Assembly (NCBI GenBank): GCA_036833255.1
Contig: DAITQD010000001.1
Span: forward strand, 1 to 53,642
Length of the DNA: 53,642 bases
Source of the DNA: Jatrophihabitantaceae bacterium
GTDB lineage: Bacteria > Actinomycetota > Actinomycetes > Mycobacteriales > Jatrophihabitantaceae
Reading direction: 5' to 3'
Positions 11,250-11,289 of this stretch are shown here, piece by piece. The notes beneath the pieces are model-generated. The model was not told where the DNA came from. It saw nothing but the letters and a program-made list of their open reading frames with translations, and did no database searches. The position numbers and the translations under genes were made by a program. Position 1 is the stretch's first letter. Each line of letters begins with the position of its first letter.

Positions 11250-11289
11250 GGGACGCCCCGGGGACGCTACCGGGACGCCGTTGGGACGG
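11250..11289 (+). promoter_or_regulatory. Four direct heptamers GGGACGC/GGGACGC/GGGACGC/GGGACGG at exact 11-bp phasing; candidate SARP binding array
   Basis: The heptamers start at 11250, 11261, 11272 and 11283. They lie between the SARP stop (11215) and the sheath start (11446). Confidence 0.5.

Follow-up and report, generated by a model that had tools for sequence, protein, structure and literature searches.

A complete eCIS operon opens at position 11446 of the window, by which we mean the whole stretch of DNA analyzed here (53.6 kb, 70% GC). Its first gene, at 11446–13344 on the + strand, encodes the contractile sheath (Pfam Phage_sheath_1 and Phage_sheath_1C), which shares 81% amino acid identity with Micromonospora sheaths and bears out the original prediction that the first eCIS gene lies at 11446. 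The remaining operon (13347–31489, + strand) is co-directional and tightly packed. Its products comprise a gp19-like tube, a Pvc16_N/DUF4255 protein, an AAA ATPase, a GPD hub, a gpV spike, and PAAR-like, gp25-like, baseplate-J-like (TIGR02243), P2-I-like, and beta-helix/DUF6519 proteins. Pfam and NCBIfam together recover this eCIS gene set, with weak matches for gp25 (E = 0.009) and the PAAR-like protein (E = 0.002).

Divergent from these genes, a gene at 8001–10223 (− strand) encodes a 740-aa eCIS_core (DUF4157) protein (Pfam PF13699, 9.9e-30), possibly an effector or accessory protein. A tyrosine integrase gene is found at 1393–2724 (− strand), ~5 kb from the eCIS region, and ARAGORN detected no tRNA genes in the window. 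The stretch at 34363–44402 (− strand) is a galactan/galactoside utilization locus, unrelated to the array described below. It encodes a pair of very large GH35 beta-galactosidase paralogues (1275 and 1417 aa) and an alpha-galactosidase, each ending in an NPCBM domain, next to a galactokinase, an epimerase, a DeoR regulator, and a sugar ABC transporter. An ABC/FtsX pair is also present in the window, whose DNA occurs in soil metagenome DNA runs only.

A small SARP beside the eCIS operon

The gene of a small SARP-family activator (10430–11215, + strand; 261 aa) lies between the DUF4157 gene and the sheath gene, and its product combines an OmpR-type winged helix with a BTAD. The start codon is the ATG at 10430, with GGAGG 6 nt before it, and homologues start at the same methionine. 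The BTAD matches Pfam PF03704 (E = 1.9e-17; 64.4 bits against a cutoff of 22.1), and HMMER aligns residues 16–237 with AfsR residues 26–258, which span the winged helix and BTAD of that protein; overall, the SARP is ~25% identical to AfsR. An AlphaFold (AF2) model built on 29 homologues has a mean pLDDT of 89, and its only strong PDB matches in Foldseek are AfsR (8k60, 8hvr) and EmbR, over ~250 residues with TM ~0.67–0.70. These two matches, together with the secondary-structure elements that AF2 places from residue 15 to ~104, point to a winged helix. Pfam Trans_reg_C gave no match to the SARP at E ≤ 0.01, and its silence on the DNA-binding domain therefore indicates a divergent small SARP. 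The BTAD domain, the AfsR alignment, and the predicted fold agree in identifying a genuine small SARP, in keeping with the regulator originally predicted at 10430–11215.

In domain content and size the protein resembles the small SARPs ActII-ORF4, DnrI, RedD, CcaR, and FdmR1, which likewise carry a winged helix and BTAD in ~260–300 aa. AfsR at afsS (PDB 8hvr, 8k60, 8jke) provides the best structural matches, although AfsR is a large SARP that also has ATPase and TPR domains and is under phosphorylation control, whereas the window SARP is a minimal form. R87 and R92 of AfsR are base-contacting arginines (PMC11301090). Their equivalents in the window SARP are R75 and R80, and across 29 family members R75 is invariant and R80 nearly so. 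Two further base-contacting residues of AfsR, Q81 and T88, correspond to D69 and R76 in the window SARP, a change consistent with the differing heptamer described below.

The SARP gene contains no TTA codon. Among the 14 eCIS genes checked together with it, a single TTA was found, at codon 309 of the AAA ATPase gene (16556–18460); in some actinomycetes such codons can bring bldA-type developmental control. The 206-bp divergent gap between the DUF4157 and SARP genes contains a tandem pair of CATCGCACCG at 10344–10363. This gap holds no phased GACG array, either upstream of the 8001–10223 gene or upstream of the SARP gene, and there is therefore no sign of SARP autoregulation in the window.

Phased heptamers upstream of the sheath gene

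The last base of the SARP stop codon is 11215 and the sheath gene begins with an ATG at 11446, which confirms the 230-bp gap described in the original prediction. Within this gap, a tetrad of heptamers stands at exact 11-bp phasing on the + strand (11250–11289): GGGACGC at 11250–11256, 11261–11267, and 11272–11278, and GGGACGG from 11283, each where it had first been reported. The 4-bp spacers between them (CCCG, TACC, and CGTT) are mutually unlike. Known SARP sites are direct heptamers in 11-bp units that lie on one DNA face and overlap the −35 region (PMC10972967), and the four exact units on one strand follow this repeat pattern; we propose them as high-affinity SARP sites. The window contains 26 GGGACGS heptamers on its + strand and 10 on its − strand. 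The phased four-copy pattern did not appear in any of 100 dinucleotide-preserving shuffles, even with up to three mismatches allowed, and the tetrad is the sole chain of at least three GACG copies in the window (periods 7–14, both strands). Given the shuffles and this uniqueness, the array is beyond chance. The intergenic gaps of the operon contain no further phased GACG array.

The 11-bp register of the tetrad goes on downstream, with GACG cores at 11318 and 11340 and the near-match GATG at 11329. The corresponding heptamers (11316–11344, + strand) are CGGACGC at 11316, GTGATGG, the near-match, at 11327, and GCGACGA at 11338, and they are proposed to be promoter-proximal SARP sites over the −35 region. 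Between these and the tetrad lie two degenerate in-phase positions, CGGATCG at 11294 and GAGTCAC at 11305 (11294–11311, + strand), which are probably not specific sites. The whole in-phase series thus has nine positions at 11250–11344, made up of six GACG cores, one near-match, and two degenerate units. The 220-nt region before the sheath gene has nine GACG cores in all, of which six fall in this one phase. The tetrad is therefore only the distal part of a longer array, which the original prediction overlooked.

This extension bears on where the promoter may lie. The hexamer 8 bp past the fourth perfect copy is TCGAGC, which does not resemble a −10 element, and this is why none was seen originally. 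That observation stands directly after the tetrad, where no −10-like hexamer follows the fourth perfect heptamer at offsets 6–10 in the window or in the two closest orthologous loci (L081 and L083, described below), and a reading of the tetrad as the core promoter was dropped for this reason. It does not extend further downstream, where GAGGAT (11353–11358, + strand) lies 8 bp after the last in-phase heptamer, GCGACGA (11338–11344), and is proposed as a candidate −10 hexamer. Judged from its place at the end of the in-phase array, GAGGAT plausibly settles the missing −10. With TCGAGC unlike a −10, the promoter call leans on the weaker proximal copies and was made post hoc, and the 8-bp spacing from repeat to −10 holds in the window only if the proximal copy GCGACGA at 11338 is counted. 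In 20,000 dinucleotide shuffles of 11290–11445, at least two in-phase cores arose with P = 0.038, and at least two in-phase cores together with NANNNT at +8 arose with a joint P = 0.0007 in a test devised post hoc. The proposed promoter has no −35-like hexamer, and a consensus scan of 10200–11500 returned neither a sigma-70 consensus promoter nor an intrinsic terminator. The lack of a −35 hexamer and of a consensus promoter fits activator-dependent transcription, of which it is no proof.

Transcription from GAGGAT would start near 11364–11366 and leave a putative 5′ UTR of ~80 nt (11364–11445, + strand) with a ribosome-binding site, GGAGG, at 11435–11439. RNA folding of this leader was no better than that of shuffles (z = 0.40). 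The leader contains a direct repeat of CCGCTTCGTTG at 11370–11380 and 11389–11399, 19 bp apart, after which a related CGCTCGTTCG follows; the CCGCTTCGTTG repeat is not conserved in L081 or L083. A heptamer pair, TTGACGC/TCGACGA, is also present at 11397–11414. Its members are 11 bp apart and out of phase (+4) with the main array, and no −10-like hexamer lies 8 bp downstream; the pair could be a second SARP site downstream of the putative start, or a chance occurrence.

The array across the SARP family

The SARP has 187 database relatives at E ≤ 1e-5, and a profile scan of species-representative genomes with the SARP yielded 80 loci. This SARP clade occurs in genomes of Micromonospora, Streptomyces, and Geodermatophilaceae, along with MAGs labelled Acidimicrobiia, Thermoleophilia, and Chloroflexota. 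An eCIS gene lies within the 4-kb flanks in at least 29 of the 80 SARP loci. Chains of at least three GACG copies number 26 at period 11 in these loci versus 0–2 at periods 7, 8, 10, 13, 14, and 16, while periods that are multiples of three represent coding repeats. Most period-11 arrays are located in the intergenic regions directly flanking the SARP gene, and the family heptamer has the consensus sGTGACGs. Sheath genes lie downstream of the arrays in loci L004, L008, L029, L035, L042, L077, and L081.

We then compared the sheath upstream regions among the SARP-retrieved loci (20 regions of 220 nt each, 15 without near-duplicates). Pairs of GACG fall at lags of 11 (27 pairs), 22 (18), 33 (11), and 44 (6), against 0–4 at other lags, and the opposite strand has almost no GACG pairs. 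All 15 non-redundant regions carry at least two GACG cores in one phase on the coding strand, in sequence that is otherwise unconserved. A reading of the array on the − strand, towards the SARP gene, was dropped: throughout the family, GACG lies on the same strand as the target gene downstream of it.

The closest available orthologues are L081, the one useful hit of two loci returned by a metagenome scan with the SARP protein, and L083, at 69% SARP identity. Both have a four-copy phased array (CGGACGT, GGGACGT, GCGACGT, and GAGACGC) just downstream of the SARP gene, and the spacers and flanks of these arrays have diverged from the window. Phased cores that are kept while spacers and flanks diverge are a signature of selection on those cores. 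Loss of the array from orthologous loci that keep the SARP gene, which would have told against the original prediction, was thus not seen in these two loci or in any of the 15 non-redundant sheath upstream regions. This pattern bears on the view that the array is a non-functional 11-bp minisatellite, created by replication slippage in GC-rich intergenic DNA. Such an origin would agree with a short tandem array in a non-coding gap in which three GGGACGC copies are identical. It is nevertheless highly improbable: the heptamers are conserved and the spacers differ from one another, the orthologues at 69% identity keep GACG cores and phase despite differing flanks, and core, phase, and strand are shared by distant lineages. 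Conservation of phased cores across lineages argues for selection, not recent duplication. Directly upstream of the SARP start codon, L081 also has a direct repeat of two GACGTCGG(C/T)ATATAA units (780–812), which is absent from the window.

The family arrays have a common promoter geometry. Known SARP sites lie over the −35 region, with the 3′ repeat 8 bp upstream of the −10 (PMC11301090, PMC10972967); in the AfsR–afsS complex, a pair of DNA-binding domains occupies neighboring direct repeats, of which the upstream one lies over the −35 and the downstream one stops 8 bp short of the −10 (PMC11301090). Among 46 in-phase chains from non-redundant loci, NANNNT follows the last heptamer at 8 bp in 16 chains and at 9 bp in 7, as against 0–3 chains at any other offset from 0 to 24. 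At the level of the family, the distance from the 3′-most repeat to the −10-like hexamer is thus most often the canonical 8 bp. The hexamers include TAGCGT (L008, L055), TAGCAT, TAGGGT, and TACCGT, as well as GAGAAT/CAGAAT in Micromonospora and GAGACT in L005 and L023. In Micromonospora (L001–L004, L009) and in L055, 6 nt separate the end of the −10-like hexamer from the sheath ATG and a ribosome-binding site is absent, so that these sheath mRNAs are probably leaderless. This distance is what a leaderless mRNA requires, and it therefore lends independent support to the −10 assignment. In the window, L081, and L083, a leader containing GGAGG precedes the sheath gene instead. Metatranscriptome contigs from a Streptomyces relative of L035 cover the whole region and carry no start-site information.

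Among the closest relatives of the window, L083 shares its plan, with four strong distal, two degenerate, and two proximal units, followed after 8 bp by GAAGCT. In L081, the phase slips by 1 bp on passing from the distal to the proximal units. In a MAFFT alignment, GAGGAT of the window is matched with GAGGAC of L081 and L083; there, the GAGGAC stretch was read as part of a heptamer, and GAAGCT, 15 nt further on, was taken as the −10. Among the closest relatives, the proposed −10 hexamers are consequently analogous, not demonstrably homologous.

An alternative is that the tetrad acts outside the core promoter. The SARP could bind it as an auxiliary upstream site, a titrating sink, or a roadblock to read-through from the SARP gene, while the true promoter lies elsewhere in 11290–11445 with another geometry or sigma factor. 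Several features would suit such a role: no −10-like hexamer stands 7–10 bp past the fourth perfect copy in the window, L081, or L083; the in-phase series has weaker copies at its proximal end and two degenerate positions; and read-through is possible with no terminator after the SARP gene. Against it, the family arrays stop 8–9 bp short of a −10-like hexamer, and those of Micromonospora (five to eight contiguous units) and L008 (six) run unbroken up to the −10. The in-phase proximal cores with GAGGAT at +8 are also improbable by chance. We consider an auxiliary role unlikely, and prefer an array that reaches the promoter.

Arrays also precede genes outside the eCIS core, in L021 (1708–3636, − strand), L053, L072–L074, L030, and L065. 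The products are ~640-aa secreted, peptidoglycan-hydrolase-like, lipase-like, giant repeat, and dipeptidase-like proteins, and from their position behind SARP boxes these genes may encode effectors or be further members of the SARP regulon.

To examine eCIS loci of other clades, we assembled a negative set of ten actinobacterial plasmid eCIS loci, fetched via the sheath protein (34–63% identity), whereas all positive loci were retrieved via the SARP gene. None of the ten has a member of this SARP subfamily within 4–5 kb, and none has a phased GACG array; a single lag-11 pair was found in the set altogether. Where there is no SARP there is no array, a reciprocal pattern that holds in this small sample of ten loci. 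Searching for three GTGACG copies at 11-bp spacing also returned 117 viral-contig stretches, none with a SARP or sheath homologue nearby. The scan has no bearing on eCIS, but the GTGACG motif alone is not diagnostic of a SARP site. The phage-like IMG/VR contigs L087, L098, L100, L122, L131, and L174, for instance, have four to eight GTGACG units at exact 11-bp spacing. The viral arrays may be iterons or operator arrays of another protein.

Another regulator that reads 11-bp direct repeats, for example of OmpR/PhoB type, might likewise bind the heptamers of the window while the SARP acts elsewhere. The OmpR-family proteins PhoP and GlnR use 11-bp direct-repeat operators, a resemblance that has been noted (PMC11301090), and the viral arrays show that similar GTGACG repeats exist without SARPs. 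The arrays nonetheless track the SARP gene and its flanking intergenic regions across gene orders and phyla, are missing from the ten eCIS loci that lack this SARP subfamily, and lie upstream of the SARP gene itself in four loci, and no second regulator gene is consistently adjacent. In addition, a recognition-helix residue co-varies with the heptamer. SARPs with GTGACG heptamers have S or T at the position matching AfsR T88, and those in which a base other than T precedes GACG have R (window, L081, L083) or Q (Micromonospora). This covariation is confounded with phylogeny and fits direct read-out by the SARP. Binding by a different regulator thus appears very improbable, and we favor the SARP as the protein that would occupy the array.

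A contractile injection system of Streptomyces clavuligerus was considered as a mapped model and dropped. On plasmid pF1D18A (NZ_CP065235.1; L202, 2605–6590), a gene for a 665-aa BTAD regulator is divergent to the CIS sheath gene, a related arrangement in a well-studied species. At 27% identity, this regulator falls in a distant branch of the SARPs, and no GACG array is present in the 380 bp between the two genes; the regulator may use a different box.

Proposed mechanism and significance

From the sequence evidence, we consider it likely that the array is the SARP-box operator of the main eCIS promoter, bound by the adjacent small SARP. Each 11-bp unit would take one SARP protomer, the protomers lining up head to tail along a single helix face. 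Two or three proximal protomers would lie over the −35 position and bring in RNA polymerase in the manner of AfsR at afsS, and with the −35 element absent they would replace the −35 contact. Transcription would run from near 11365 through the sheath gene, the proposed direct SARP target, and into the entire eCIS operon. The four perfect distal sites would probably nucleate cooperative filling of the weaker proximal sites, and cooperative filling could in turn produce a threshold-type switch. The PHO boxes of Streptomyces PhoP consist of several 11-nt direct-repeat units in which a strong core and weaker extension units are filled cooperatively. They offer an analogy for how a long array may work and no grounds for membership; the protein branch, the repeat, and the signal differ.

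The logic of the SARP box is itself known. As with small pathway SARPs, the regulator gene adjoins its target cluster and the sites are direct heptamers in 11-bp units. New here are the target, a contractile injection system where theirs is a biosynthetic gene cluster; the GACG core (consensus GTGACG) in contrast to their TCGAG-type repeats; and the long array, whose four perfect copies and as many as nine in-phase positions compare with the usual two or three. The BTAD (PF03704) was previously found to recur as a 'shell' domain beside eCIS loci, and eCIS-associated genes of the GerE/LuxR, BTAD, and RfaH types were suggested to be operon regulators (Geller et al. 2021, PMC8213781). That work established a domain association only, whereas a cis-element and its geometry are defined here. 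We found no description of a SARP box at a sheath promoter in the literature searched.

More broadly, this uncharacterized small-SARP clade may constitute a dedicated eCIS master switch, in which long GACG arrays carry a tetrad-nucleated filament that reaches the −35 region. We offer this wider reading tentatively and regard it as somewhat doubtful. If true, a costly operon would fire in an all-or-none manner from arrays as long as nine helical turns, and expression of the neighboring SARP alone could turn on silent eCIS clusters. Most eCIS clusters are silent in the laboratory, and we know of little about eCIS regulation beyond domain co-occurrence. An operator paired with its candidate cognate activator provides a direct experimental handle on eCIS, including orthologues in culturable Micromonospora such as M. 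deserti, M. thermarum, and M. solifontis, and turns a vague association between BTAD and eCIS into a specific and cheap experiment. The motif is simple, 11-bp-spaced GACG heptamers of which the last lies 8 bp from a −10, and lends itself to predicting SARP regulons in many genomes, effector-like genes with this box included. A strong distal tetrad combined with weak proximal sites also makes the locus a test case for cooperative threshold activation by OmpR-fold activators. The finding takes SARPs beyond secondary metabolism and, if the master-switch reading is true, the 'antibiotic regulatory protein' family would gain a second major class of regulon.
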